This document shows positions 992 to 43,161 of a DNA stretch of 64,000 nucleotides, in pieces. The notes beneath the pieces were generated by a model, which was not told the DNA's origin, searched no databases, and was given only the letters and a program-made list of their open reading frames with translations. Position numbers and translations under genes: made by a program. The stretch spans positions 19,619-83,618 of the forward strand of contig MFDN01000001.1 of NCBI GenBank assembly GCA_001776935.1. Reading direction: 5' to 3'. Each line of letters starts with the position of its first letter. The first letter of the stretch is position 1. The stretch comes from Candidatus Daviesbacteria bacterium RIFCSPLOWO2_01_FULL_39_23. GTDB taxonomy: Bacteria; Patescibacteriota; Microgenomatia; Daviesbacterales; UBA10151.

Positions 992-1793
992 GAATATTAC
1001 CCTTATAAAAAATCTTTTGGATATTAGCGGAAAAACAGCTATTGTAACAGGCGGAGCTTCGGGTATTGGTTTTGGGATAGCCTGCAGACTGGCAGAAGCC
1101 GGGGCAAATATAGTGATTGCAGATGTGCAGGCTGATGAAGCGCAAAAGGCAGCAGAAGATTTCTCAGCAAAAGGCTGGAAGGCAAAGAGTGTAATGGTTG
1201 ATGTATCAAATGAGGAAGATGTTAAAAACTTAATTGCTGAAACGGTTTCAACTTATGGGTCGGTTGATATTTTGGTTAACAATGCCGGGATTTATCCTGC
1301 TATCCCTATTTCGCAGATGTCTTTAAAAGATTTTGAAAAAGTGATTGATGTGAATTTAGATGGGGTATTTTTGTGCACAAAGTATGCCTCCGAGCAAATG
1401 AAAAAGCAAGGCAAGGGAGGCAAAATTATAAATGTTGCCTCAATTGATGCATTACATCCTTCTATGGTAGGGCTTTCTGCATATGATGCTTCAAAACACG
1501 GGGTTTGGGGATTTACTAAAAATGCGGCTTTAGAGTTGGCGCCTTTTAAAATTTGGGTTAATTCCATAGCCCCGGGAGGAATTGCCACGCCGGGGGTCGC
1601 TAAAATGCAATCCCAGGAAAATTCAGCTGGCGATGGAGGTAAAGCAATAGAAGAGTTTATGGCAAAAATCCCTATGGGCAGAATAGGGGAACCGGATGAT
1701 ATCGGAAAAGTAGCCTTATTTTTAGCCTCGGATATGTCCTCTTATATGACCGGGTCACAGATTGTAGTAGACGGCGGCGTACTTTTATCCTAA
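992..1793 (+). CDS. SDR-family oxidoreductase (3-oxoacyl-ACP reductase-like)
   Basis: TGGASGIG Rossmann motif, NNAG motif, catalytic region YxxxK-like (YDASKHGV). ORF track 954..1793; likely start MNITLIKNLL at 992. Confidence 0.85.
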
Positions 1794-1803
1794 CTTTTGT
1801 TAT

Positions 1804-1834
1804 TGACAACGGTTCCCTATTTAAGATATGATAT
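1804..1834 (+). promoter_or_regulatory. Sigma70-like promoter for csoR operon (TTGACA 1804-1809; -10 candidates ATATGA/TATGAT ~1827-1834)
   Basis: Perfect TTGACA, 17-19 bp spacer to a TATGAT-like hexamer, immediately upstream of the palindromic operator and csoR ATG. Confidence 0.45.
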
Positions 1835-1850
1835 CCCCCTAGGGGGGACT
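1831..1850. promoter_or_regulatory. CsoR operator-like GC-rich palindrome (core CCCCCTAGGGGG)
   Basis: Perfect 12-bp palindrome ccccctaggggg at ~1835-1846, flanked tccccctagggggga. Sits between the -10 region and csoR start codon, the only GC-rich dyad in an AT-rich intergenic region. Confidence 0.6.
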
Positions 1851-1858
1851 AGACAAAT

Positions 1859-2131
1859 ATGACTTACAGACCTAAAGATACTCAGGAACGTATTTTACAC
1901 AGACTTAAGATTGCCAAAGGACATTTGCAAAAAGTTATCCAAATGGTTGAATCCGGTCAATATTGCATAGACGTGATTCATCAGTCTCAGGCTATCCAGC
2001 GTGCTTTGCAGGAAGCAGATTCTGTGCTTTTGGAAAACCACCTAAAAACTTGTGTGGTGGATCATATAAAAAAAGGCGAAGCAGATTCGTCCATTCAGGA
2101 AATTATGAATGTTTTACAAAAAAGCAGATGA
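1859..2131 (+). CDS. csoR: CsoR/RcnR-family metal-sensing transcriptional repressor (copper-sensing CsoR-like)
   Basis: 90 aa. CIDVIHQSQAIQRAL...HLKTCV contains the Cys/His/Cys metal-ligand pattern of the CsoR (DUF156) family. First gene of an operon encoding CopA and CopZ. Confidence 0.8.
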   Translation: MTYRPKDTQERILHRLKIAKGHLQKVIQMVESGQYCIDVIHQSQAIQRALQEADSVLLENHLKTCVVDHIKKGEADSSIQEIMNVLQKSR

Positions 2132-2631
2132 ATAACAAAAAAATAATTATTGGTTTTATAATTTTTACCCTTTTAATGCTGGGGGGCGGGGTTTTTGTTT
2201 TAAGCAGTACGACTTCCGGCCCGGGTAAAATCACAGCTTCTCAAAATGCCAAAGCAGAAGTTTTGGAAAAAACTTTTGACTGGGGAAACATACCTATAAA
2301 CGGCGGCAATGCCACAAAAACTTTCATTATCAAAAATACAGGTTCTGAGATCTTGAAACTTACCGGAATTAAGACTTCCTGTACTTGCACAAAAGCGCAG
2401 GTTGAAATAGAGGGAAAAACCAGTCCCTATTTTAGCATGCATGCAACATCGGGGTGGGTCGGAGAAGTGGCGCCGGGTAAAGAGGCCCGGCTCTTGGTTA
2501 TTTTTGATCCGGCTTTTCATGGGCCAACAGGAGTCGGTTCTGTGGAAAGACTGATTTCTATTCAGACAAATGATTCTCAAAACCCTAATCTGGAATTTTC
2601 TTTAAAAGGAGTCGTGATTAAAGATCAATGA
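2128..2631 (+). CDS. DUF1573 domain protein (signal-anchored, conserved TSCTCT motif)
   Basis: MNNKKIIIGFIIFTLLMLGG signal/TM then FIIKNTGSEILKLTGIKTSCTCTKAQ, matching the DUF1573 consensus (FxFxNTG...SCGCT). ATGA overlap with csoR stop. The longer ORF-track start at 1963 overlaps csoR out of frame and is rejected. Confidence 0.6.
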   Translation: MNNKKIIIGFIIFTLLMLGGGVFVLSSTTSGPGKITASQNAKAEVLEKTFDWGNIPINGGNATKTFIIKNTGSEILKLTGIKTSCTCTKAQVEIEGKTSPYFSMHATSGWVGEVAPGKEARLLVIFDPAFHGPTGVGSVERLISIQTNDSQNPNLEFSLKGVVIKDQ

Positions 2632-3557
2632 AAAAAATTAAGAAAATACTGGCAAAAGCGGTTCCTTTATGGATGGTGATTTTAATTACTATAAATTCCA
2701 CCATGATTATGGGTATTGCACAGTATTATTTAATGAGAGCAGAGCTTCGCAGGAATTTAAGCGAGCTTGCAAAAACAACAAAGAGTCCGGAAGATTTAGT
2801 GACAATTCTAAAACAGGAAGTTCTGCCGCAGGATGGTTATACGACTTCTTTAAAATGGAAAGATTTGGGAAAACAATTGGTAGAATCAGGAGCCATTGAT
2901 AAGAAAAAATATGAAGAAATTTTTACTTCTACCTCAGATGGAGCGGACCATATGAAATATCTTAATGAAGCCTCAGAAGATAATATCAGAATAGATGAGA
3001 AAAATTCCCGCTTCATGGTTAACACTTTTTGGGCTTTGGGTTTGGTACAAAAAAGCAAAGTTTTAGATGAAGGGCCGATGAAAACCGGCGGCACGCCGAC
3101 AGAAAATTTTGCCTCAACAGGAGGGTGGACTTTAGGGGCAAAACCTGTAATGGAAATTTATTCATCCAGGGAATTACTGCCCCTGAATTCTTTTCAGCAG
3201 GATTTGGTGAAAAAGATTGCTGAGAATGTTTTCCGTCCCTGTTGCGGCAACTCCACAGCCTTTCCTGATTGTAACCACGGCATGGCTGCTTTGGGTTATA
3301 TAGAGTGGGCAATCTATAACGGTCTTCCTGAGGAGCAAATTTACAAAGACCTGTTAGCTTTTAATGTTTTCTGGTTTCCGCAAAATTATGTGGAAATGGC
3401 AGTGTACTTTGATAAAAACGGCACAAAATGGAAAAATGTTGACCCGAAACTGGCTTTAGGCAGCGAGTACTCGTCCGCTCAGGGAGCGCAGCGTATTAAA
3501 CAATCTGTTCAAAGCGTACCCGGTTTGCAGATTCAGGGAGGGGGCTGCGGGGTATGA
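2628..3557 (+). CDS. Hypothetical membrane-anchored protein with Cys cluster (CCGNSTAFPDCNHG)
   Basis: 309 aa, N-terminal TM helix, ATGA overlap with the upstream gene, ends GGGCGV. No recognisable family. Confidence 0.5.
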   Translation: MKKIKKILAKAVPLWMVILITINSTMIMGIAQYYLMRAELRRNLSELAKTTKSPEDLVTILKQEVLPQDGYTTSLKWKDLGKQLVESGAIDKKKYEEIFTSTSDGADHMKYLNEASEDNIRIDEKNSRFMVNTFWALGLVQKSKVLDEGPMKTGGTPTENFASTGGWTLGAKPVMEIYSSRELLPLNSFQQDLVKKIAENVFRPCCGNSTAFPDCNHGMAALGYIEWAIYNGLPEEQIYKDLLAFNVFWFPQNYVEMAVYFDKNGTKWKNVDPKLALGSEYSSAQGAQRIKQSVQSVPGLQIQGGGCGV

Positions 3558-3561
3558 AGAA

Positions 3562-3600
3562 AGTTCAAAGTTCAAAGTGTAAAGTGTAAAGTGTAAAGTT
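3562..3600. repeat. Tandem heptamer repeat (AGTTCAA x2, AGTGTAA x3, partial)
   Basis: agttcaa agttcaa agtgtaa agtgtaa agtgtaa agtt, lying between the stop of the 2628-3557 gene and the start of the 3618 gene. Confidence 0.8.
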
Positions 3601-3617
3601 ATGAGATATAAGGTTTT

Positions 3618-4454
3618 ATGGAAAATGTACTTTTTCAAACATCTCTTATAGCTGCGTTTGTGGCCGGGATGGTGGCCCTTTTTGCTCCCTGCTGTATTAC
3701 TTTTTTACTGCCTGCTTATTTAGGCAGTGTTTTTAAGGAAAAGGAAAAAGTAATTCTAATGACTTTGGTTTTTGGTGCAGGGATTTTTACGGTGCTTCTG
3801 CCTGCAGTTTTAGGGGTGGCTTTTATTTCCAAATTTTTATTCCGGTACCATGATTTAATTTATTTTATCGGCGGTTTTGTAATGCTTATTGTGGCTTTAA
3901 CTACTTTTTTAGGTTTAAAAATGCCTATGCCTAATTTACCCGGGGCTAACATCGGCAAGAGGACAGATGTGGTATCAATTTTTACGCTTGGGATGGTGTC
4001 AGGTGTTACCAGCGCCTGCTGTGCTCCGGTTTTGATTGGAATTATGACTTTAACATTCCTGTCCCCTACTTTTTTCGGGGCTTTATTGGTAGGCGGTATG
4101 TATGTTTTAGGAATGGTGATTCCCCTGCTTTTGATTGCTGTTTTTCTGGCTGGTAAAATGCCGAAATTTTCTGTTTTAAGAAAACCTATTTTTTCTCTGA
4201 ATTTATTAGGGAAGACCTATTCGGTTATTCTTAGTAATTTAATTGCCTCGGCAATATTTTTATTTACCGGACTTTTGATTTTGGGCTTAACAATTACCGG
4301 TAAACTTTCGGCAGAGAATATGGATGAGTTTACTAAGATTATCACTAGTGCCTTGAGCAGTGCCAACAATGCGTTTGGTAATAATATTTTATTAAACATT
4401 TTGTTTGTGGGTACACTGGGGCTATTTATTTATTGGATATCCAAAAAAGTGTAG
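3618..4454 (+). CDS. CcdA/DsbD-transmembrane-domain-like thiol:disulfide membrane protein with di-cysteine motifs
   Basis: FVAGMVALFAPCCITFLLPAYLGSV resembles the CcdA TM1 motif (AGxxSFxSPCxLPLxPxYL). A second motif GVTSACCAPVLIGIM resembles CcdA TM4 (PCxxP). Multiple TM helices. Confidence 0.5.
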   Translation: MENVLFQTSLIAAFVAGMVALFAPCCITFLLPAYLGSVFKEKEKVILMTLVFGAGIFTVLLPAVLGVAFISKFLFRYHDLIYFIGGFVMLIVALTTFLGLKMPMPNLPGANIGKRTDVVSIFTLGMVSGVTSACCAPVLIGIMTLTFLSPTFFGALLVGGMYVLGMVIPLLLIAVFLAGKMPKFSVLRKPIFSLNLLGKTYSVILSNLIASAIFLFTGLLILGLTITGKLSAENMDEFTKIITSALSSANNAFGNNILLNILFVGTLGLFIYWISKKV

Positions 4455-4482
4455 TATATATCCTGAGGGGGTGATAATCACT

Positions 4483-4611
4483 ATGATGGGTTGGGGAGGT
4501 TATGGCTACGGCATGATGAATTCAGGATTTGGCATACTTTTTTCGTTAGTCGTATTATTGGATCTGATTCTTTTAGGAGTTTGGCTTTGGAAGCAGATTC
4601 AGAAAAAATGA
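4483..4611 (+). CDS. Small Gly/Tyr-rich single-TM membrane protein (42 aa)
   Basis: MMGWGGYGYGMMNSGFGILFSLVVLLDLILLGVWLWKQIQKK. Strong SD gagggggtg 9 nt upstream of ATG. ORF track 4405..4611 trimmed to the SD-supported start. Confidence 0.45.
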   Translation: MMGWGGYGYGMMNSGFGILFSLVVLLDLILLGVWLWKQIQKK

Positions 4612-4633
4612 TTCTTGGAAAGGGGTGATAAAA

Positions 4634-4903
4634 ATGCTGAATGCGAAAGCTTTTGCTAACGCCGCATCGTTGGTGATGGCAGTATGGGTTGTGGGCTGCG
4701 CTTTGCTGGCATATGTAATGCCTGATTTACTTTTTTCTATCTCGCAGTCCTGGACTCATACTATAAATCTCGGGGCAGTCAGAGCGCCGTTTAATCCCGG
4801 TTTGGGATCGCTAATTCTTGGTTTTGTCAGTGCGGTGGGATTGACCTGGGTAACAACTTACGGGACAGTTGCCCTTTACAATAAATTTGCAAAGAAAGGT
4901 TAG
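4634..4903 (+). CDS. Small hypothetical membrane protein (89 aa)
   Basis: MLNAKAFANAASLVMAVWVVGCALLAYV..., two predicted TM helices. SD aaggggtg 7 nt upstream of ATG. Confidence 0.45.
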   Translation: MLNAKAFANAASLVMAVWVVGCALLAYVMPDLLFSISQSWTHTINLGAVRAPFNPGLGSLILGFVSAVGLTWVTTYGTVALYNKFAKKG

Positions 4904-4909
4904 AGAGCA

Positions 4910-5335
4910 ATGAGAAAGGCTGTTGTTTACGGAATTTTGGCAGGCGCGGGACTGCTCGTTCTATATCTTTTAGTGATGGGTTTGGCATCAGGGTCATGGG
5001 ATTACACTGCGAGACAGCTGATCAATTTTAAGTTTTGGATTGCTGCGCTGGTTTTGGGGTTTGGTATTCAGGTTGGGCTGTTTAGCTATCTTAGGAATTG
5101 CCGTGAAGAAACTGCAGCAGGTAAAAGGACAGTTGCAGCCGGAGCAGGTACATCTACTGTGGCGATGCTGGCATGTTGCGCCCATCACATAAGCGATGTT
5201 TTGCCTTTTTTGGGCTTGTCAGTATTAAGCTTGACACTTAGCAAATATCAGGCGTGGTTTTTGGGTTTGGGTGTTGCGTCAAACCTAGTTGGGATATTTT
5301 TGATGCTACAACAAATTAGGAGAATGAAAAAATGA
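4910..5335 (+). CDS. Hypothetical integral membrane protein with ACCAHH motif
   Basis: 141 aa, 3-4 TM helices, MLACCAHHISDVLPF in a TM segment. Located inside the copper operon. Confidence 0.45.
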   Translation: MRKAVVYGILAGAGLLVLYLLVMGLASGSWDYTARQLINFKFWIAALVLGFGIQVGLFSYLRNCREETAAGKRTVAAGAGTSTVAMLACCAHHISDVLPFLGLSVLSLTLSKYQAWFLGLGVASNLVGIFLMLQQIRRMKK

Positions 5336-5763
5336 ATAAATTGGGAATAGTTTTAATATTAACAATGGTTTTTTTAACAGCCTCATGGGTATGGATGGTA
5401 AGCGGGTCAAAACAGGATCCTGCGCCTTCAAAAATTCCCATGACTTTAAGCAGTCAAAGCGATGAGAAAGGAGATGTCGCTGTGAAAGTTACACCGATTT
5501 CTCTAGAGCCGGGTAAACAAGCAAAATTTGAAGTGGTTTTGGATACTCATTCAGTAGAGCTAATTTATCATATGGTTAAGATTTCCAGCTTAAGCGATAA
5601 TCAAGGCAATGCATTGAATCCAGTTTCTTGGAGCGGTGGATTAGGTGGCCATCATTTAAAGGGCGAACTTGTTTTTCCTCCTCTTAAGATGGATGCTAAA
5701 TCAATAGAGCTTTTTATTTCTGGTATTGATGGTTTTGACAGAAGTTTTAGCTGGAATATATAA
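5332..5763 (+). CDS. Hypothetical secreted/periplasmic protein (signal anchor, GGHH motif)
   Basis: MNKLGIVLILTMVFLTASWVWM signal. Beta-rich sequence with LGGHHLKGEL. ATGA overlap with the upstream gene. Confidence 0.4.
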   Translation: MNKLGIVLILTMVFLTASWVWMVSGSKQDPAPSKIPMTLSSQSDEKGDVAVKVTPISLEPGKQAKFEVVLDTHSVELIYHMVKISSLSDNQGNALNPVSWSGGLGGHHLKGELVFPPLKMDAKSIELFISGIDGFDRSFSWNI

Positions 5764-5781
5764 AGGAGGATACCGAAGCAG

Positions 5782-6141
5782 ATGAGTATAGATAAAATAT
5801 TAGTTGCTTTTTTTGGTCTTTTCGGGATAGCTTTTACTTTTTGGTTTTTTTTGATGAAAAAAGAAAAAGAGGTGGAAGTAAGCGGGGAAATAGATATAAC
5901 AGTTTCCGGTGGCTATTCTCCGGAGGTAATTTCCGTTCCTGTTGGTAAAACTACCAGAATGAATTTTTTCCGGACAGACCCGACAGATTGTTTGTCCGAG
6001 GTCGTGCTTCCTGATTTTAAAATCCGAAAAGAGCTGCCTTTAAATAAAAAAATCAGCGTGGAAATAACTCCGAAAAAAACAGGGGAATTTGGATACACTT
6101 GCGGCATGAATATGTATCATGGAAAAATAATAGTTAAATAA
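5782..6141 (+). CDS. Cupredoxin-like (Cupredoxin_1-type) small membrane-anchored protein, probable Cu-binding
   Basis: N-terminal TM then [17 protein letters not shown]...[19 protein letters not shown] (C-terminal Cys/Met/His ligand cluster as in cupredoxin folds). SD aaggagga upstream. Immediately precedes copA. Confidence 0.5.
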
Positions 6142-6142
6142 T

Positions 6143-8383
6143 ATGGCAGAAAATAAGAAAACATTCAAAATAAAAGGCATGCATTGCGCTTCATGCATAA
6201 GGGTAATCGAAAGCTCTATTAAAAAGATTCCCGGAATATCCGATGCTTCAGTTAGTTTAGTGACAGAAAAAGCAACAGTAGCGTTTGATCCCAAAAGGGT
6301 AAATGATGAACAAGTTATGTCTGCTGTTTCCAGGGTAGGTTATAAAGCCTTTTTGGAGGAGGAAGGGGAATCGGAAGAAAAAGAAAAAGAAGAAAAGCAA
6401 AAAGAACTTTCTGCCCTTAAAAGAAAAGCTTTTATCAGTTTGTTTTTGGCATTTTTAATTGTTTGGGGAAGTTTTCCTTACATTGACCAATTTGCTCCAT
6501 TTATCTTAAAAAACTTCTGGGTGCAACTTATTTTAGCTTTGCCTGTGCAGTTTTGGGCAGGACTCATGTTTTATAAAGCAACAATTCCCGCTCTGCGCCA
6601 CCGCACTGCCAATATGGATACTTTAATCACCATCGGAACAACTGCGGCTTTTGGGTATTCGGTAGTCGCTACAGTTTTTCCGCAGATTATTGAAAGCGCA
6701 GGCATTGAGCCGATGCCTTATTTTGATGTATCGGCAGTAATTATCGGTTTAATTTTGCTGGGCAGATATTTTGAAGCAAAAGCCAAAGCAGGTACCTCAG
6801 AGGCAATTAAAAAGTTAATCGGATTGCAGGCTAAAACTGCCAGGGTTTTAAAAAACGGTAAAGAGGAAGATATAGCAATTGATCAGGTTGTGATTGGGAA
6901 TATCATCCGGGTAAGACCAGGCGAGAAAATTCCGGTTGACGGAAAAGTAAAAGAAGGGCAATCTTCGGTAGATGAGTCAATGATTTCCGGAGAAAGTATT
7001 CCGGTGGAAAAAACAAAAGGAGACTTAGTTATCGGAGGGACGATAAATAAAACAGGAAGCTTTATTTATGAAGCAACCAAAGTGGGAAGCGATACTATGC
7101 TTGCGCAAATCATCAAGCTGGTTGCCGAAGCGCAAGCCAGCAAGGCGCCGATTCAAAGACTGGTTGACTTAATTTCTTCTTACTTTGTGCCGGTAGTTTT
7201 AATGCTTGCAATTTTTACCTTTACAGTATGGTATATCTTTGGGCCTCAGCCTGCATTTTTATTTGCCATGCTGAATTTGGTGGCGGTTTTGATTATTGCC
7301 TGTCCTTGTGCCATGGGACTTGCAACTCCAACAGCCATTATGGTGGGAGTGGGCATTGGGGCGGAACACGGGATTTTAATTAAAAACGCAGAAAGTCTGG
7401 AAATTGCCCATAAAATAAATACGGTGATTTTTGATAAAACCGGAACTTTAACAAACGGTAAACCAGTGGTAACAGACATAATTTCGACCTCGCAGGTCAA
7501 AGGCGCTGGACCTGCGAGGTCTGTGCTGCAGATTGCCTCATCAATAGAAAAAGGGTCAGAGCACTCCTTGGCTGAGGCTATTGTCCAGAAGGCAGACCAG
7601 GAGGGACTTGCCCTGAGCGCAGTCGAAGGGTTTAAGGCAGTACCGGGGCACGGAGTAGAGGGAATTATTAATAAAAAAAGGGTGATCTTTGGGAACAGGA
7701 AGTTGATGGATCGGGAAAAAATTATCTGGCGGAAGATGGAGGCAAATATTGAAAAGTTGGAATCAGAGGGTAAGACAGTTATGATGCTGGCAGTTGAAGG
7801 TGAACTTGCTGGATTGATAGCAGTTGCGGATACTTTAAAACAAACTTCCAAAAAAGCAATTGACACGCTTTCGAAGATGGGAATAGAGGCTGTGATGATT
7901 ACAGGTGATAATGAAAGGACTGCTAAAGCCATCGCAAAACAGGCAGGAATTAAAAGAGTTTTGGCAGAAGTGCTGCCTGATCAAAAAGAAGCTGAGGTAA
8001 AAAAAATTCAGGCAGAGGGTAAAGTGGTGGCTATGGTGGGGGACGGGATTAATGATGCGCCGGCCCTGGCAGCAGCCAATATAGGTATTGCTATGGGAAC
8101 CGGAACAGACGTGGCAATGGAGGCGGCGGGAATTACCCTGGTAAGTAAAGATTTAGCTTCTGTTGCCGAGGCAATTGAATTATCAAAAAAAACAATGAGA
8201 ACAATAAAGATGAATCTTGTCTGGGCTTTCGGGTATAATATAACCTTAATACCTGTGGCAATGGGAGCTCTTTATCCGGTCTTCCAGATATTGCTAAATC
8301 CCATTTTTGCCTCAGCGGCAATGGCTTTAAGTTCAATATCAGTGGTCAGCAATTCATTGCTTTTGAAAAGGACTAAACTCTAA
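6143..8383 (+). CDS. copA: Copper-translocating P1B-type ATPase
   Basis: N-terminal HMA domain GMHCASC, TM CPC motif ([13 protein letters not shown]), DKTGTLT phosphorylation motif, GDGINDAP hinge. 746 aa. Confidence 0.95.
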
Positions 8384-9427
8384 ATGGATCTTTGGCTTAT
8401 CTTTTTTACAGGACTGACAATAGGCGGCGTTTCCTGCATGGCAGTGCAGGGGGGGCTTTTGGCATCCACTATTGCTGCCCGCGAAGAAGAAGAAATAGAA
8501 GAGGGGAAAAATAGAAAACAGGGCGTTTGGCCGACTTTGTCATTTTTAATCACTAAATTCTTTGCTTATATTATTTTAGGACTTGTTTTAGGCGGGTTTG
8601 GGGCGGCTCTGCAGATTTCGGAAAGAGTGCAGGCTTTTATGCAGATTGCAGCTTCTTTATATATGCTGGCTGTTGCCATGAATTTACTGAATGTCCACCC
8701 TGTTTTTAGATATGTGATTATTCAGCCTCCCAGATTTTTAACAAGACTTGTGAGAAACCAGTCTAAAAGCAAGGATTTATTTGCACCCGCATTTCTTGGG
8801 GCAATGACTATTTTCATTCCCTGCGGAACAACACTGGCTATGGAAGCTTTGGCAATTTCCTCAGGCAGCGCAATTAAAGGCGCGGCAATTATGGGAGCTT
8901 TTGTTTTGGGTACTTCTCCCCTATTTTTTGCGTTGGGATACATAACTACCACTTTGGGTGATGCTTTCCGGGCAAGATTTTTAAAGCTGGCAGCAATATT
9001 AATAATTTACCTTGGAATGACATCCTTAAACGGGTCGCTAATTTCCCTTGGATCTCCCATTACCCTGCAGTCTTTGGCAGACGCTTCGCCTATTCAGATA
9101 AGTTTTGGCGGCGAAGAAGGTTCAGACAGCGCAGATACTGTAAATACTACTTTAGTAAACGGAGTGCAGGTTGTGGAGATTCAAGCTTTTCCTAATGGGT
9201 ACAGTCCTACTTATATTAAGATTAAAAACGGGGTGCCGACAAGAATTAATGTAACTGCTACAGGGGGTTATGGTTGCACTTCTGCTTTTGCTATTCCCGC
9301 TTTAGGCGTTAGAAAAAGATTAGCTTTAAATACAACTGTTCCTGTAGAGTTTACCCCTCAAAACAAAGGGAAGATTCTTTTTAGCTGCTCAATGGGAATG
9401 TATTCAGGAGTAATAGAGGTGATTTAA
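8384..9427 (+). CDS. Polytopic membrane protein (CcdA-like Cys-in-TM motifs) fused to C-terminal cupredoxin-like domain
   Basis: TGLTIGGVSCMAVQGGLLAS and IFIPCGTTLAMEAL in TM helices. C-terminal domain ends KGKILFSCSMGMYSGVIEVI, paralogous to the C-terminus of the 5782-6141 protein. Confidence 0.45.
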   Translation: MDLWLIFFTGLTIGGVSCMAVQGGLLASTIAAREEEEIEEGKNRKQGVWPTLSFLITKFFAYIILGLVLGGFGAALQISERVQAFMQIAASLYMLAVAMNLLNVHPVFRYVIIQPPRFLTRLVRNQSKSKDLFAPAFLGAMTIFIPCGTTLAMEALAISSGSAIKGAAIMGAFVLGTSPLFFALGYITTTLGDAFRARFLKLAAILIIYLGMTSLNGSLISLGSPITLQSLADASPIQISFGGEEGSDSADTVNTTLVNGVQVVEIQAFPNGYSPTYIKIKNGVPTRINVTATGGYGCTSAFAIPALGVRKRLALNTTVPVEFTPQNKGKILFSCSMGMYSGVIEVI

Positions 9428-9639
9428 TGATCAAAAAGAAATTTAAAATAACCGGTATGCATTGTTCGTCCTGCGCCATAACCATAGATATGGATTTGGA
9501 GGATTTGGATGGTGTAAAGATGAGCAAGACTTCTTATGCTAAGGCAGAAACTGAAATCGAATTTGACCCGGAAAAAGTTACTGATTCTAAAGTTTTGGAA
9601 ACCATCAAAAAATCCGGTTATGAGGCCAGTATACCCTAA
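9427..9639 (+). CDS. copZ: Copper chaperone CopZ (HMA domain)
   Basis: 70 aa, ITGMHCSSCAITID metal-binding MxCxxC motif. Start overlaps the stop of the upstream gene. Confidence 0.8.
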   Translation: MIKKKFKITGMHCSSCAITIDMDLEDLDGVKMSKTSYAKAETEIEFDPEKVTDSKVLETIKKSGYEASIP

Positions 9640-9640
9640 A

Positions 9641-10624
9641 ATGTTTGATTTAATATCCGTTGGTGATGCACGTATTGATAACTCTGTTCATCTGCCTAAA
9701 GCACATATTTCCTGTACCATAAATAAAGAAAGATGTGAAATCTGTTTAGCTTATGGTGGCAAGATCCCGATAGACAGCGTTAAAGTCCAACCGGCGGGAA
9801 ACAGTAACAATAATGCTGTAGCTGCAGCAAAATTGGGGTTAAAAACAGCACTCTATGCCAATATAGGGGAAGATGCCAACGGAAAAATGATTTTAGATCA
9901 TTTAAAGGCGGCTGGCGTAGATACCAGGTATATGGTGGTAAATAAAGGCATTCCAACAGAGCAGTCAATTGTTATAAATTACAACGGGGAAAGGACAATT
10001 TTGGTTTACCATCATCCCTGGGATTATACTTTGCCTGATTTGGATAAGACTAAATGGGTTTATTATTCTTCGGTTTCATTTTCATTTCCCAAGACTTCTT
10101 TGGTTCCGCAGCTTGAAAATTATATAGAAAGGATCGGGGGCAGCCTGATGTATTCACCGGGGACTCATCAGCTGAAGTTTGGAGTCAAAAAACACCCCAG
10201 GCTCTTGTCTCTAACAAGGGTGTTGATTGTTAATTATGAAGAAGCAAAAAAAATTTTGGAGATTGATGGCGGAAGAAAGATTGATATAAAAAAACTGCTT
10301 TCTTCCCTTGCGGATTTGGGGCCTAAAAATGTCGTGATTACAGACGGGAAAGAGGGATCATATGGATTTGACGGTAGTAGTTTTTTTAAAATCGGGCTTT
10401 TCCCGGCCGAATTAAAAGAAGCAACCGGCGCAGGAGATGCATATGCTACAGGGTTTTTAGCAGCTCTTTTTTATGGAAAAGATTTTTCTGAAGCTATGAG
10501 ATGGGGAGCTGCAAATTCAGCGGCAGTTGTAGAGCAATGTGGCCCGCAGGAGGGGCTGCTTTCTTATAATCAAATGCAGGAAAAATTAAATAAAAATTCC
10601 GGGATCAAAGCAGGGGAAATTTAG
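9641..10624 (+). CDS. PfkB-family carbohydrate/nucleoside kinase (ribokinase-like)
   Basis: MFDLISVGDARIDN..., NNAVAAAKLG, C-terminal TGAGDAYATGFLAAL (DTxGAGD motif). ORF-track 9536 start overlaps copZ; ATG at 9641 chosen. Confidence 0.75.
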   Translation: MFDLISVGDARIDNSVHLPKAHISCTINKERCEICLAYGGKIPIDSVKVQPAGNSNNNAVAAAKLGLKTALYANIGEDANGKMILDHLKAAGVDTRYMVVNKGIPTEQSIVINYNGERTILVYHHPWDYTLPDLDKTKWVYYSSVSFSFPKTSLVPQLENYIERIGGSLMYSPGTHQLKFGVKKHPRLLSLTRVLIVNYEEAKKILEIDGGRKIDIKKLLSSLADLGPKNVVITDGKEGSYGFDGSSFFKIGLFPAELKEATGAGDAYATGFLAALFYGKDFSEAMRWGAANSAAVVEQCGPQEGLLSYNQMQEKLNKNSGIKAGEI

Positions 10625-11343
10625 CGGACTACGACCCTTGTGCCGGGGTTTTCTGCGGTGGCACGTACAGCATTTTGATCCGGGGGAACAACCGGCCCGG
10701 CCCAGTCAAAGAGTTGGGCAACAGAAGCAAGAGGGGAATTTACACAGCCGTGGCTCATCGGGTGACCGAAATTATTATGCCAGTAGGCTCCGTGTATGGC
10801 ATAGCCCTGATGGAAAAACATATTATGTGGCACATTGGGAAGATAATAATATGTCCCCAAATCTTTTGATCCGCCGCTCATTGTTTGATTTCTGGTTTTA
10901 TACCAAATATTAAAAGATCCCTTTGGAGTAGGAGCCCAAAGGCCGGAAGAAATAGGAAATTCTATCACCAGCGTGTTGCCTTCATAAGCCCTTAATCTTT
11001 GTTCGTCTAAGGATACATCAATCCATTTTTCCTCTCCTGCTTCATTAGTGGTGCCCAGTACTGCCTGATTTTCATCGGGATTTTGAGCTAAAGACTGCGA
11101 GTAAGCGTAAGACAAAGATGTTTTTGGGTAATCAATCACCTCTCCGTTAAAAATAGCTGTATTTGCATCTTCATCAAACTTGCCGTTTTGGCTTAAGATG
11201 TTGTCAACGGTGCAGCAGGAAAGCGTGAGGTCGCCGGAGATATTCAGCTTATAAACAATGGTCCTGCGGATAGATTGAAAATTAAAAGCGATATAGGCAA
11301 TTACGGCTATTAACAATAGAAGAGGTACAAGACGGTGTAGCAT
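10621..11343 (-). CDS. L,D-transpeptidase (YkuD domain) with N-terminal TM anchor
   Basis: IHGAYWHNNFGHPMSHGCVNSPLASVAQLFDW contains the H...SHGC catalytic motif of YkuD L,D-transpeptidases. Confidence 0.75.
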   Translation of the reverse strand: MLHRLVPLLLLIAVIAYIAFNFQSIRRTIVYKLNISGDLTLSCCTVDNILSQNGKFDEDANTAIFNGEVIDYPKTSLSYAYSQSLAQNPDENQAVLGTTNEAGEEKWIDVSLDEQRLRAYEGNTLVIEFPISSGLWAPTPKGSFNIWYKTRNQTMSGGSKDLGTYYYLPNVPHNMFFHQGYAIHGAYWHNNFGHPMSHGCVNSPLASVAQLFDWAGPVVPPDQNAVRATAENPGTRVVVR

Positions 11344-11433: not shown

Positions 11434-12345
11434 ATGAAAAAGTATGCCATCCTGGTTGGTATTTTCATTATTTTCTCCTCTTTTATGATAGCCGGCGCCG
11501 CCTCAAGCAGTCGATCTGCTGAGTTGATCTCTCCGGCTGTAAAAGCGGAAAAAGTATTAGGCGTAAACCAATGGTATCCGGGTGAGGCCACTGCAGAAGC
11601 GGATGCCCCAAAAGTTACTGCCAAAGCCGGTTTTTTTGTAGACACAAAAAACGGAACAGTGCTTTATTCAAAAAACATTCATGAAAAATTACCCATTGCT
11701 TCATTGGTTAAAGTAATGACTGCTTTAATAGCCTTGGAGCATAAAAGCATGGAAAATGAGTTTATTGTTTCGGAACATGCTGCAGGTATGGAGCCTGATA
11801 AAATGCTTCTGATTGCAGGAGAAAAGCTGAGTTTGAAAGAAATTTTGAGCGGAATTTTTTTGGTGTCTGCAAATGACGGAGCAGAAGTTTTAGCAGAAGG
11901 AACAACCGGAGACAGGACTGAGTTTTTAAATTTAATGAATGCAAAAGCAAAACAACTCGGAATGAAGAATACCTATTTTGCAAATCCTACCGGTTTGGAT
12001 GAAGATGAAAATAATTCATATTCTACAGCCTATGATTTAGCAATTCTGACAAGACATCTGATCCGTCGCTATCCGGAGGTAGTTGATATATCCAAAACAG
12101 AACATATTTATTTACCCATAACGGAAAATCATCAGGATTATGATATGTATTCAGGGATAAATTTACTGACTACTTACCCCGGAGTAGTAGGTTTTAAGAC
12201 CGGTTATACACCGGAGGCAGGATTAACTTTAATAACTTTGGTGCAAAAAGAAGGCCGGGAAGTAGTGGGGGTTTTGCTTGGATCTTTGTCCCGAAGGGAT
12301 GAGGCAAGAGAGCTTTTGGATTATTCATTTAAAAAGTTAAATTAA
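11434..12345 (+). CDS. D-alanyl-D-alanine carboxypeptidase (PBP5/DacA-type serine peptidase S11)
   Basis: SxxK (SLVKVMTA), SxN (VSANDGA), KTG (FKTGYTPEAG) motifs. N-terminal signal. Confidence 0.8.
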   Translation: MKKYAILVGIFIIFSSFMIAGAASSSRSAELISPAVKAEKVLGVNQWYPGEATAEADAPKVTAKAGFFVDTKNGTVLYSKNIHEKLPIASLVKVMTALIALEHKSMENEFIVSEHAAGMEPDKMLLIAGEKLSLKEILSGIFLVSANDGAEVLAEGTTGDRTEFLNLMNAKAKQLGMKNTYFANPTGLDEDENNSYSTAYDLAILTRHLIRRYPEVVDISKTEHIYLPITENHQDYDMYSGINLLTTYPGVVGFKTGYTPEAGLTLITLVQKEGREVVGVLLGSLSRRDEARELLDYSFKKLN

Positions 12346-40761: not shown

Positions 40762-43161
40762 TCACCGCTTATTTGTATTCTGATTGAAGAATCTGGGGAG
40801 CATCAGTAAAAGGATAATTATTATTACCGAAATTCCGCTTATGATAGCTCCAGCCTTTAAAGAATTTGGGGCATATTTGAATTCAACAATATGATCGCCT
40901 TTTGGCAAAACAACTCCTCTGAAATTATAGTTTGTTTGGTGAATTACCGACTCTCTTCCATCTATGAAGGCTTTCCAGCCGGGATAAAAAGAATCTAAAA
41001 CTACAAGATAAGAATCTATATTTGCAGAAGCTTTAATTAGAATATGTGAATTAGTAATTTGTTCATACGTTAAATTTTCTTTTAGGTCCTCATTAGAATT
41101 ACTGTTGAACTCAAAATCTGAGATGGAAGTAGTTCTGATAGGGAAACTGTTATCAAGCATCAATTCCAAAGCTTCTTTGTCTGATGCTTTAATCACCCTA
41201 CTGGTTAAGTAAGCTCTTGGAAGAGTTTGTGTATTTTCCAGAATTACCACACCTTTGTCTCCAAATACTTCTTTGTATTTGGGAAGCTTAAGCTTGCTGG
41301 AGACCTTTCCCATTTCAGAAACTTTGCCGTTATTGTCTCTTTTTACAGCCACTATAAAGCGGACATTTGATTCATCCACTATTTTGGAATCAAAGTTTTC
41401 CAGAATACCCCAGCGGGGCTGAGGAGGGGTGTCAGATCTGCCTGAATTAGCAGACGCAAGCAACTTAGCTGTTTTTAACGGGTATACTCCGTCATAGCCT
41501 GCTATAGAAGATAATTTGTAAGGAAGCCACATATTAGCAGGGAAAACATCCTTTTCAGCGGTGAATCTGTCATATGGATATTTTTTCAAGTAATTTGAAA
41601 TAGGAGTTTCGGGATAAATAAAATTTGGACTTGAAAAGGTATTAAATTTAAGTCCGAAACGGAATAACTCGAAAATAAGCACAATAATAAACACTAAGAT
41701 AACGGTAGATTGTGGTAGCTTGGTTTTTTTGGTTAGCAAAATTAATAATGTTACAGTTATTATTAAAATGATGGGTAATATTAAATTTTTCAAGCTGATA
41801 TTTATATGAGAAATAATTTCCAAATCTGCATTTGCATTACTCATTAAAATATACCTGCTTATCAATAAACCTATTGTTATCCCTGAAGCTATGGAAAATA
41901 TCCATATACCGGGCTTTAAGCTTAATTTTGAAGGAGACTGTCTGATTAAAGATATGCCATATGCTCCTAAAACAGAAAGAGAAAAATTAATTAAGAAATT
42001 TGCCCGATTCATTGTTATGGAAGATCCTCCCCAAAGACCGAGTTTGTATAAGAAAACACTCAAAGGATTTTCAACAACAATAACTAAAGTGGTAATGAAA
42101 ATTAAAAAAGCAAACTTAACTGGAAAATTGTTCCAGTAATGCTTTACCCCTATCAGGGCAAAAATTAGGGCTGTTATCCCTCCATATAAGGTAAAATCCA
42201 TATGGTCTCCGCTGCCCCAAAAATTACCTGTGGCATCATTGCCAAAAAAGTCAGGGGCAATCAAGGTAATTAAGTTTTGTAATGATATAAAGGGACTTCC
42301 TGTTCCCAGAGTTTCAACTACTCTTTGAGAAATTCTAATCAATTCTGCGGCAGGAAATAAAAAGATTGCGCTTAAAGATGCGCCTAGAACAATAAAAAAT
42401 ATAACTTTGGGATCAGGTATAAATCTTTTTGTCTTGAAAATATACCAAATAACTAGCGCGACCAAAGTAAAACAAATGATAGGCAAATAACCTGCCAAAA
42501 TTTGTATGCATAAAAAGATGCTAAATAGTATTCCCCATTTTAGTTTTCTAGAAATTAAATATTTGTCTTCCAGTAAAATTAAGATTGGTAAAAACATGCT
42601 GGTTACAGCCTGGGTATTCCATTGCACCCATAGAATTGTAAATCCACCAAATCCATAAACAATGCCGCCAAAAATACTGGAAAGTATTTCCAATCTAAAA
42701 TGTCTTAAGAGTAAATACATAAAAAAAGACGCCAGCAGCGGTTGTGCCATTATTTGAAGAGTCCATGCAATAGGTGATGAGAATATAAGATAAAAAATCA
42801 TTGTAGGAAAAAGCGATCCTACCTGGACATTTGCGAATAACGGATAACCTCCAAACATATAAGGATTCCATAAAGGCAATTGTTTTTGTTTTACTATTTC
42901 TGCAACCAGAGATTTAAAAGGGTAATACAAAGATACGGCATCAGAGAGTTTGGGGTTTTGAACAGGTACTCCCACAATATAATTTCCCCATTTGTAATTT
43001 ATCCATGGGTGGTAAGCTCCCACAATTAAATCTGTAGGTAAAGGAATTAATCCAAGAAATATTTTATAGAAAAATATTAAGGTTAAAAAAGTAAAAAAGA
43101 TAAAAGCTATAATAATTTCTTTAATGCTCACAACTTCATTATATAATAGAGTTATCATCAA
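40762..43161 (-). CDS. YfhO-family GT-C membrane glycosyltransferase-like protein
   Basis: 799 aa polytopic. N-terminus FFYKIFLGLIPLPTDLIVGAYHPW...YYPFKSLVAEIVKQKQLPLWNPYMFGGYPL typical of bacterial YfhO proteins. Start TTG/ATG at ~43155-43161. Confidence 0.7.
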   Translation of the reverse strand: MMITLLYNEVVSIKEIIIAFIFFTFLTLIFFYKIFLGLIPLPTDLIVGAYHPWINYKWGNYIVGVPVQNPKLSDAVSLYYPFKSLVAEIVKQKQLPLWNPYMFGGYPLFANVQVGSLFPTMIFYLIFSSPIAWTLQIMAQPLLASFFMYLLLRHFRLEILSSIFGGIVYGFGGFTILWVQWNTQAVTSMFLPILILLEDKYLISRKLKWGILFSIFLCIQILAGYLPIICFTLVALVIWYIFKTKRFIPDPKVIFFIVLGASLSAIFLFPAAELIRISQRVVETLGTGSPFISLQNLITLIAPDFFGNDATGNFWGSGDHMDFTLYGGITALIFALIGVKHYWNNFPVKFAFLIFITTLVIVVENPLSVFLYKLGLWGGSSITMNRANFLINFSLSVLGAYGISLIRQSPSKLSLKPGIWIFSIASGITIGLLISRYILMSNANADLEIISHINISLKNLILPIILIITVTLLILLTKKTKLPQSTVILVFIIVLIFELFRFGLKFNTFSSPNFIYPETPISNYLKKYPYDRFTAEKDVFPANMWLPYKLSSIAGYDGVYPLKTAKLLASANSGRSDTPPQPRWGILENFDSKIVDESNVRFIVAVKRDNNGKVSEMGKVSSKLKLPKYKEVFGDKGVVILENTQTLPRAYLTSRVIKASDKEALELMLDNSFPIRTTSISDFEFNSNSNEDLKENLTYEQITNSHILIKASANIDSYLVVLDSFYPGWKAFIDGRESVIHQTNYNFRGVVLPKGDHIVEFKYAPNSLKAGAIISGISVIIIILLLMLPRFFNQNTNKR

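Follow-up and report, generated by a model that had tools for sequence, protein, structure and literature searches.

A probable CupA orthologue and a DsbD_2-cupredoxin fusion in the copper operon of a Daviesbacterium, with a possible role of the fusion in Cu(I) relay

The window that we analysed, a 64-kb stretch (64,000 nucleotides, nt) of a contig of Candidatus Daviesbacteria RIFCSPLOWO2_01_FULL_39_23, carries a CsoR-controlled copper-efflux operon of an uncultured groundwater bacterium of the candidate phyla radiation (CPR; Microgenomates/Daviesbacteria). Two open reading frames of this operon are central here, 5782-6141 (+, 119 aa) and 8384-9427 (+, 347 aa); an earlier reading of the sequence alone (the original prediction) had drawn attention to them, and both exist with the C-termini quoted there. 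The first very probably encodes an orthologue of pneumococcal CupA, and the second joins a six-helix DsbD_2 membrane core to a further CupA-type cupredoxin domain. For the system as a whole we tentatively favour, at somewhat less than an even chance, the following reading: a CupA chaperone acts in the same operon as an outward-facing fusion protein that relays Cu(I) with the help of a partner containing an HMA domain.

The two cupredoxin domains are homologous, as had been noticed (40% identity over 73 ungapped residues; E 4e-17, far beyond chance), and the profile search that had been proposed as a check, with the Pfam model Cupredoxin_1 (PF13473), recovered both the 119-aa protein (E 4e-23, 81.8 bits, cut-off 27) and residues 259-344 of the 347-aa protein (E 1.6e-9, 38.2 bits). 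They indeed bracket copA (6143-8383). In a phmmer search against the PDB the free-standing protein matched CupA (2MRY/4F2E) with E 2.7e-23 and 40 of 85 residues identical (47%); its C70, C107, M109 and M111 align column for column with CupA C74, C111, M113 and M115, and the spacing of 37 residues between the two Cys is that of CupA C74 to C111. In CupA and in the metal-binding domain of pneumococcal CopA (4F2F) these residues make up a binuclear Cu(I) site, consisting of a bis-thiolate S1 and an S2 formed by Cys and two Met (PMC7558416, PMC5646241). The C-x-M-x-M cluster that had been noticed is this published site and not a new ligand set, and His is no part of it. The Cys and Met positions are kept across distant homologues (C-x-M-x-M in 120/120 listed homologues of the free-standing protein), so that from the proposed Cys/Met/His ligands the Cys...Cys-x-Met-x-Met set holds, whereas the His of 'MYHG' is found in the free-standing copy only.

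The likeness to Streptococcus pneumoniae CupA (4F2E, 2MRY) and the CopA domain extends beyond the cupredoxin-like fold and the ligand set. The free-standing protein has a predicted N-terminal membrane anchor and its gene adjoins copA upstream with a gap of 1 nt, the gene order that is also found in the S. pneumoniae cop operon (PMC7558416, PMC5646241). The homologues carry on average 3.5 lysine plus arginine residues (K+R) after the transmembrane (TM) helix against 1.0 before it (115/115 homologues), the flank after the helix being equally acidic; the domain is predicted on this basis to face the cytoplasm, which fits the orientation described for CupA. In other respects the two systems differ: the cognate CopA of the window lacks a Cupredoxin_1 domain according to Pfam and starts with a classical HMA domain (residues 7-68) in place of the cupredoxin-type metal-binding domain expected of a CupA partner, a CopZ is encoded as well, regulation is by CsoR and not by CopY, the host is a CPR bacterium, and the second copy of the domain is found on a DsbD_2 membrane protein, where it is predicted to lie outside, and not on the ATPase. 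Reviews treat CupA as singular or as confined to a few streptococcal species (PMC5646241, PMC7558416, PMC9470648); contrary to such statements, the free-standing protein is of the CupA kind far outside the streptococci, and a very probable orthologue occurs here together with CopZ and with a CopA of the HMA type. The 119-aa sequence equals that of ACD_38C00074G0009 (uncultured bacterium; 100% identity), and close homologues of it and of the fusion carry the names Candidatus Daviesbacteria or Microgenomates. Genes that are 55-65% identical to the Daviesbacteria proteins, in the same order, were found in loci L002, L005, L007, L010 and many others, and the titles 'uncultured Gammaproteobacteria bacterium isolate binchicken...' on these four and others look like unreliable placeholders.

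The fused domain likewise found its PDB relatives in pneumococcal proteins (CopA metal-binding domain 4F2F, E 1e-9; CupA, E 1.8e-8). Hydropathy and the AlphaFold2 (AF2) model agree on six TM helices for the core of the fusion, and TM1 and TM4 are broken helices with one invariant Cys each. These Cys, C18 in VSCMAVQGG and C147 in IPCGTT, had been pointed out as lying in TM helices, which is correct, and they are 100% conserved in 53 diverse sequences. Across 44 sequences with 25-59% identity, fourteen positions are invariant (G10, C18, G23, G66, G73, G139, P146, C147, G166, Y273, C298, C335, M337 and M339); they cover both membrane Cys and all four predicted copper ligands, and within the cupredoxin domain only Y273, C298, C335, M337 and M339 are among them. 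TM4 reads P-C-G, TM1 reads C-M-x-x-Q-G-G in the window protein and S-x-H-C-x-x-M-C-G-G in clostridial ones, and Met is frequent at core positions 19 and 153. A blue-copper (type 1) or CuA role of the domain was considered and set aside, as no His is invariant in it and the ligands expected for these centres are His-Cys-His-Met and Cys2His2Met. Members of the family are labelled 'sulfite exporter TauE/SafE', 'heavy metal transporter' or 'UreH domain' in the databases; the first of these labels appears to be a generic transfer, the fusion having no PF01925 match at E 5 or better.

The distribution of positive charges was used to orient the fusion. In 61 close homologues the mean K+R numbers are 3.7, 6.1 and 2.0 in loops 1-2, 3-4 and 5-6 (11.8 in total), and 0 in the N-terminus, loop 2-3 and loop 4-5 and 0.5 in the tail after TM6; in the 53 diverse sequences the totals are 10.1 for loops 1-2, 3-4 and 5-6 against 0.9 elsewhere, with the asymmetry present in 53/53. 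With the positive-inside rule this places both termini outside and makes the cupredoxin domain extracytoplasmic. The same placing is supported by the relatives: an N-terminal HMA domain without signal peptide always comes with one added helix before TM1 (among family members with an N-terminal extension, 38/39 have exactly one extra hydrophobic helix), K+R averages 2.55 before this helix and 0.74 after it, the AF2 model of the Acetoanaerobium homologue shows the HMA domain, one helix, six helices and the cupredoxin domain in turn, and lipoboxes or signal peptides are present in many C-x-M-x-M proteins that are not fused. We therefore consider it likely that the fused domain faces outward, the topology being a predicted one. 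As the K+R bias puts the free copy inside and the fused copy outside, the two CupA-type domains are probably on opposite faces of the membrane.

We then determined which genes accompany the fusion in 81 related loci, to which the following counts refer unless stated otherwise. An HMA gene lies directly 3' of the fusion on the same strand in 73/81 loci, at a median gap of 8 nt, and several of the eight loci without it end at or near the fusion gene; HMA follows the fusion also in loci without CopA within 8 kb, and six loci (L004, L006, L053, L062, L065, L066) have the fusion and CopZ with no CopA match. The gene copA adjoins the fusion on its 5' side in 48/81 loci and has another position within the locus in a further 21, and csoR is present in 50/81. 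A separate CupA (at least 50% identity) is present in 29/81 loci, directly 5' of copA in 25 of them. The CopA proteins of these CupA-bearing loci are 60-80% identical to that of the window, while in the 35 loci with a complete CopA (plus upstream sequence) and the fusion, without free CupA, the median CopA identity is 47%; CupA is thus tied to a subclade of copA, and the fusion to the HMA gene. This does not bear out the idea that the fusion is paired with the free copy: the constant partner is the HMA/CopZ gene. In line with this, Pfam HMA is fused to the core in 120/120 listed homologues of Clostridia, where in the examined cases copA comes next, and the pair of fusion and HMA gene recurs in plasmid-borne metal-resistance islands of Streptomyces sp. 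F12, Deinococcus sp. QL22 and Tsukamurella (in the latter with a P-type ATPase, merA and a multicopper oxidase as neighbours). That an HMA protein on the cytoplasmic side is the functional partner of the fusion is, in our estimate, fairly likely. The earlier proposal of a membrane copper module that works with the ATPase thus survives in part: CsoR, operator, CopA and CopZ provide the setting for it, and same-side pairing of the two cupredoxin copies is unlikely.

On these data the following mechanism can be sketched. The free CupA would be anchored in the membrane, face the cytoplasm and act as a Cu(I) chaperone together with the CopA pump encoded next to it. The fusion would present its six-helix DsbD_2 core with both termini outside and a CupA-type binuclear Cu(I) domain on the outer face, and CopZ, of which the start overlaps the fusion stop, would supply Cu(I) on the cytoplasmic side, a task that elsewhere would fall to an HMA domain fused N-terminally via one extra helix. 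Cu(I) would then move by ligand exchange from CopZ to C18/C147 in the membrane and on to C298/C335/M337/M339 outside, such that an ATP-independent outlet or sink would exist beside CopA once cytoplasmic Cu(I) de-represses the operon. Relay or export of Cu(I) by the fusion is, judged from sequence, a possibility that falls short of probable, and still more tentative is the wider proposal that a DsbD_2 core, an outer CupA-type domain and an HMA partner together form an unrecognised ATP-independent trans-membrane relay for Cu(I), perhaps also for Ag(I)/Hg(II). What the analysis establishes is homology, conservation of the ligands, a predicted topology, gene linkage and the regulatory element; that the window proteins bind metal, that a relay exists and that it runs outward is what we infer from these data.

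The scheme resembles a Mer relay that is run outwards. In the MerP-MerT-NmerA system a soft-metal domain outside, a membrane Cys pair and an HMA domain inside pass the metal on by ATP-free ligand exchange. The fusion module follows the same logic of outside domain, membrane Cys and inside HMA, and differs from it in that the membrane part is non-homologous and the outer domain is a cupredoxin and not an HMA domain; as the context is one of copper efflux, the direction is probably outward.

Several points weigh against the relay. The topology of the fusion is a prediction, the confidence of AF2 for the membrane cores is moderate (predicted local distance difference test, pLDDT, 50-75), and the lysines after the helix that give the free copy its CupA orientation are matched by as many acidic residues. 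A bis-thiolate site that faces outward is unusual and prone to oxidation. The core has no invariant acidic residue (position 154 is Q in 38/53 and E in 11/53 sequences), so that neither coupling to protons nor a source of energy for export is apparent. The precedent within the DsbD superfamily is transfer of electrons and not of metal, the presence of merA/merB near the fusion on two plasmids leaves Hg(II) or an inward direction possible, and no functional study of the fusion family was found in the literature, DsbD_2/PF13386 and COG2836 included.

The main rival takes up the electron-transfer precedent: the DsbD_2 core would act like CcdA/ScsB, with C18/C147 passing reducing equivalents from a cytoplasmic thioredoxin outward, and C298/C335 would thus be kept reduced so that the outer domain can bind Cu(I), or would reduce Cu(II). 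The core belongs to the Pfam clan of CcdA, DsbD and ScsB and shares with them the six helices, the invariant Cys in TM1 and in TM4 and the N-out/C-out arrangement (predicted for the fusion), and some homologues of the fusion show weak matches to PF02683 (DsbD_TM). The window fusion itself, however, has no PF02683 match at E 5 or better and no fused thioredoxin-fold domain, and its partner domains are metal-binding ones (HMA inside, CupA-type outside). CcdA has the motif P-C-x-x-P, of which the proline is missing in TM1 of the fusion, where soft-metal residues (Met/His/Cys) surround the membrane Cys instead. In favour of the rival, the S1 cysteines of CupA can reduce Cu(II) in vitro, and what re-reduces them in the cell is not known (PMC5646241); ScsB/ScsC, the former being linked to copper tolerance, provides a DsbD-type precedent for such tolerance (discussed in PMC7785015). 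A conduit for reductant would leave the near-universal HMA partner, fused or adjacent, without a role, and the idea is weakened further by the separate CcdA genes that, together with TlpA or glutaredoxin genes, adjoin the module in two aerobic actinobacterial plasmid loci. We regard this explanation as unlikely; a dual role of the fusion, as relay and as reductant conduit, is possible.

The remaining explanations differ in where the copper would come from and whether the membrane core would take part. The outer domain might do no more than take over the Cu(I) that CopA releases, in the way that CusF serves the CopA of E. coli, with the core as an anchor or scaffold, which would suit the frequent position of copA directly 5' of the fusion (see the counts above), its adjacency in Clostridia and Tsukamurella and the copA stop that abuts the fusion start in the window; as a single helix would suffice for anchoring, the six helices with fourteen invariant positions in the fusion, two Cys among them, are not accounted for, nor are the HMA fusion and the six loci that have CopZ and no CopA match, and we consider a passive acceptor rather improbable. 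An inward relay of the MerP/MerT type, in which Cu(I) or Hg(II)/Ag(I) would pass from the outer domain via the membrane Cys to HMA and then to CopA or MerA, would mirror the MerP-MerT-NmerA arrangement and agrees with merA after the module in Tsukamurella and with merB and merR nearby in Deinococcus. The neighbours in most loci, including the window, are nevertheless CsoR, CopA and CopZ, the open reading frames examined over the initial 13 kb of the window included no mer genes, and import of copper under a copper-excess regulator would be counterproductive, so that we judge it improbable. A reading in line with the original prediction, that of free and fused copies as a same-side donor-acceptor pair which serves CopA in the manner of CupA and the CopA domain, has in its favour that homologous domains flank copA and that Cu(I) transfer from cupredoxin to cupredoxin occurs in S. 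pneumoniae (PMC7558416); the opposite predicted orientations, the 35 loci with complete CopA and fusion but without free CupA, and the tracking of CupA with the 60-80%-identical CopA subclade make it very doubtful. Most doubtful of all is a redox cupredoxin, i.e. an outer electron-transfer or copper-redox centre with a membrane redox partner: the fold is that of a cupredoxin, the fold matches include cupredoxins of FtrB and EfeO, and an FtrD-like (PF10080) gene is found directly 5' of the fusion in two Clostridia, yet conserved His ligands are absent, Cys, Cys, Met and Met are those of the CupA Cu(I) site and not of type 1 or CuA centres, and the window has no FtrD-like gene at E 0.1 or better. 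Cupredoxins of the EfeO-N, FtrB and Bacillus anthracis 4HCF type have the Cupredoxin_1 family, the fold and an extracytoplasmic location (predicted for the fused domain) in common with the fused domain; the identity in these fold matches is only 12-19%, and it is with iron uptake, not with the CupA-type Cu(I) site, that they are linked.

Some of the neighbouring genes in the plasmid and clostridial loci deserve mention for themselves. On the Tsukamurella plasmid merA and a multicopper oxidase gene follow the pair of fusion and HMA gene (L084, 7446-10454), on the Deinococcus plasmid merB and merR are near the pair (L083, 9757-11192), and the fusion family may handle Hg(II) as well. Separate CcdA genes flank the module on two actinobacterial plasmids (L082, 1393-2361 and 4607-5374; L084, 261-1594), accompanied in L084 by a TlpA-family gene and in L082 by genes for a peroxiredoxin and a glutaredoxin, which suggests that these aerobic hosts have a system of their own for keeping outer thiols reduced. 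The FtrD-like gene (PF10080, formerly DUF2318) is located directly 5' of the HMA-DsbD_2-cupredoxin gene, with copA next, in Clostridium thermosuccinogenes and Sporobacter termitidis (L087, 4299-4823; L088, 4338-4862); this hints at a redox partner in Clostridia.

To estimate how far domain and fusion are distributed, a search with the fused domain was made over 1.84 billion representatives. It yielded 2807 clusters at 50% identity at E <=0.001 and 379 at E <=1e-10, a spread that changes the streptococcus-only picture of the CupA site. C-x-M-x-M is kept by 148 of the 150 best representatives, and in 85 of the 150 the CupA-type domain is attached to a homologous DsbD_2 core, so that among the nearest relatives it is most often this fusion that carries the domain. 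The 52 sequences out of these 85 that have a complete core fall into 13 that start directly at TM1, like the window protein, and 39 that are N-terminally extended; 34 extensions carry the CxxC typical of HMA (Pfam HMA was confirmed in five of six sampled), and the extended forms end in one to three cupredoxin domains. A scan of species genomes (one genome per species, 23-sequence alignment A3) recovered relatives of the fusion in at least 587 genomes from several phyla, the best 80 being those of Chloroflexota and of the CPR groups Davies-, Levy-, Woyke-, Collier-, Gottesman-, Pace- and Magasanikbacteria. By tblastn against plasmids the same architecture was found in Streptomyces, Tsukamurella, Mycolicibacterium, Deinococcus and Ca. 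Chlorohelix, and a homology search returned thousands of clostridial proteins with HMA, DsbD_2 and C-x-M-x-M in one chain (cultured examples: Clostridium thermosuccinogenes, Caldicoprobacter, Petroclostridium and Sporobacter). Precomputed Pfam lists are an unreliable test for absence of the domain, since several entries without PF13473 still have C-x-M-x-M. The two clostridial fusion proteins whose full sequences were examined, from Acetoanaerobium noterae (P0391) and Clostridium thermosuccinogenes (P0414), end in ...SCH, and a Cys close to the C-terminus is retained in the family consensus; this end, which is absent from the window fusion, may be an extra metal-binding tail. CupA-type domains were also seen near the N-terminus of heavy-metal P-type ATPases, as in pneumococcal CopA, on a Streptomyces longwoodensis plasmid (L086, 3914-6745) and on Ca. 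Manganitrophus plasmids (H11-H13), and the cupredoxin-type pump domain is therefore not confined to streptococci.

The fusion joins known domains in an architecture that is already recorded in the databases. The nearest link to it in the literature is a prediction that in gut Firmicutes the CsoR regulon includes COG2836 genes (HMA plus DsbD_2; PMC4938975). The proteins of these genes share the core and the partnership with HMA, and the clostridial members have CupA-type domains as well; the window fusion is the split form, without fused HMA or extra helix. If the interpretation given here is right, the CupA-type site is a widespread module that is used on both faces of the membrane and not a streptococcal peculiarity. 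Reviews of copper homeostasis name P1B-ATPases as the route by which cytoplasmic Cu(I) is exported; should the fusion conduct Cu(I), many anaerobes and plasmid-borne metal-resistance islands would possess a second, ATP-independent copper route through the cytoplasmic membrane, the "sulfite exporter" label would be corrected for thousands of entries, and the relay family would span CPR bacteria, Chloroflexota, Clostridia, Actinomycetota and Deinococcota. Direct testing is possible in cultivable hosts: Clostridium thermosuccinogenes, Sporobacter termitidis, Acetoanaerobium noterae, Streptomyces, Deinococcus and Tsukamurella.

The features of the operon are collected in the table. All genes from csoR to copZ are on the + strand and the packing is tight at the cupredoxin genes: a gap of 1 nt separates cupA from copA, the ATG of the fusion follows immediately on the stop codon of copA, and the fusion stop and copZ start overlap (TAATG). 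The motifs CPC, YN and MxxSS are visible in the translation of copA. Because a promoter-like site and then a CsoR-type palindrome precede csoR, expression of the operon is most likely induced by cytoplasmic Cu(I). A palindrome of a C-run and a G-run, mostly ATATCCCC-N-GGGGGATAT, is found just 5' of csoR in most of the 37 CPR and Chloroflexota loci that were examined. The other match to the CsoR-box core pattern in the window is at position 41408.

Table. Features of the copper operon (positions in the window)
Feature	Position	Strand	Remarks
Sigma-70-like promoter, TTGACA-18-TATGAT	1803..1832	+	11/12 consensus positions; top match in 1700-10800; consensus match only
CsoR-type operator palindrome, ATATCCCCCTAGGGGGGAC	1831..1849	no strand	Core pattern C(4+)-N(2-4)-G(4+) only twice in the window
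csoR, Cu(I)-sensing repressor family	1859..2131	+	Pfam PF02583, E 1.1e-22
DUF1573 gene	2128-2631	+	Accessory membrane/exported gene of the operon
p309	2628-3557	+	N-terminal TM helix, motif PCCGNSTAFPDCNHG, C-terminal GGGCGV; Cys-rich
p278	3618-4454	+	Polytopic; APCC in first helix, ACCAP mid-protein; Cys-rich
DUF5676 gene	4625-4903	+	Accessory membrane/exported gene of the operon
p141	4910-5335	+	Polytopic, contains CCAHH; between DUF5676 and cupA
p143	5332-5763	+	N-terminal TM helix, contains GGHH; between DUF5676 and cupA
cupA, probable CupA orthologue, 119 aa	5782..6141	+	N-terminal TM anchor at about residues 6-25, cupredoxin-like Cu(I) domain residues 34-118
copA, Cu(I)-exporting P1B-type ATPase	6143..8383	+	NCBIfam TIGR01511, 626 bits; Pfam HMA residues 7-68
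Fusion: DsbD_2 six-helix membrane core	8384..9049	+	Pfam PF13386 residues 6-212, E 3e-32, 112.5 bits (cut-off 24.9)
Fusion: invariant core Cys C18	8435-8437	+	
Fusion: invariant core Cys C147	8822-8824	+	
Fusion: CupA-type cupredoxin domain, predicted extracytoplasmic	9146..9424	+	C298, C335, M337, M339
copZ, predicted 70-aa HMA Cu(I) chaperone	9427..9639	+	Pfam HMA E 6.5e-12; NCBIfam CopZ models

The six accessory genes at 2128..5763 are each present in just 2-14 of the 81 related loci and are therefore not core partners. For p309 and p278 there is no Pfam, NCBIfam or PDB sequence match; they co-occur with DUF1573 and DUF5676 in 11-14/81 loci, and this group may be a second thiol- or metal-handling module. 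A relationship of p278 to the fusion family was considered and dropped, the profile comparison (E 0.085) being not significant. Since p141 and p143 occur in only 2/81 loci, they look like recent additions to the operon. Just 3' of the copper operon, an L,D-transpeptidase gene (10621-11343, -; YkuD-type by homology to a gene of locus L001) is followed by a D-alanyl-D-alanine carboxypeptidase-like gene (11434-12345, +), which lies beside the YkuD-type gene in the same order in L001.

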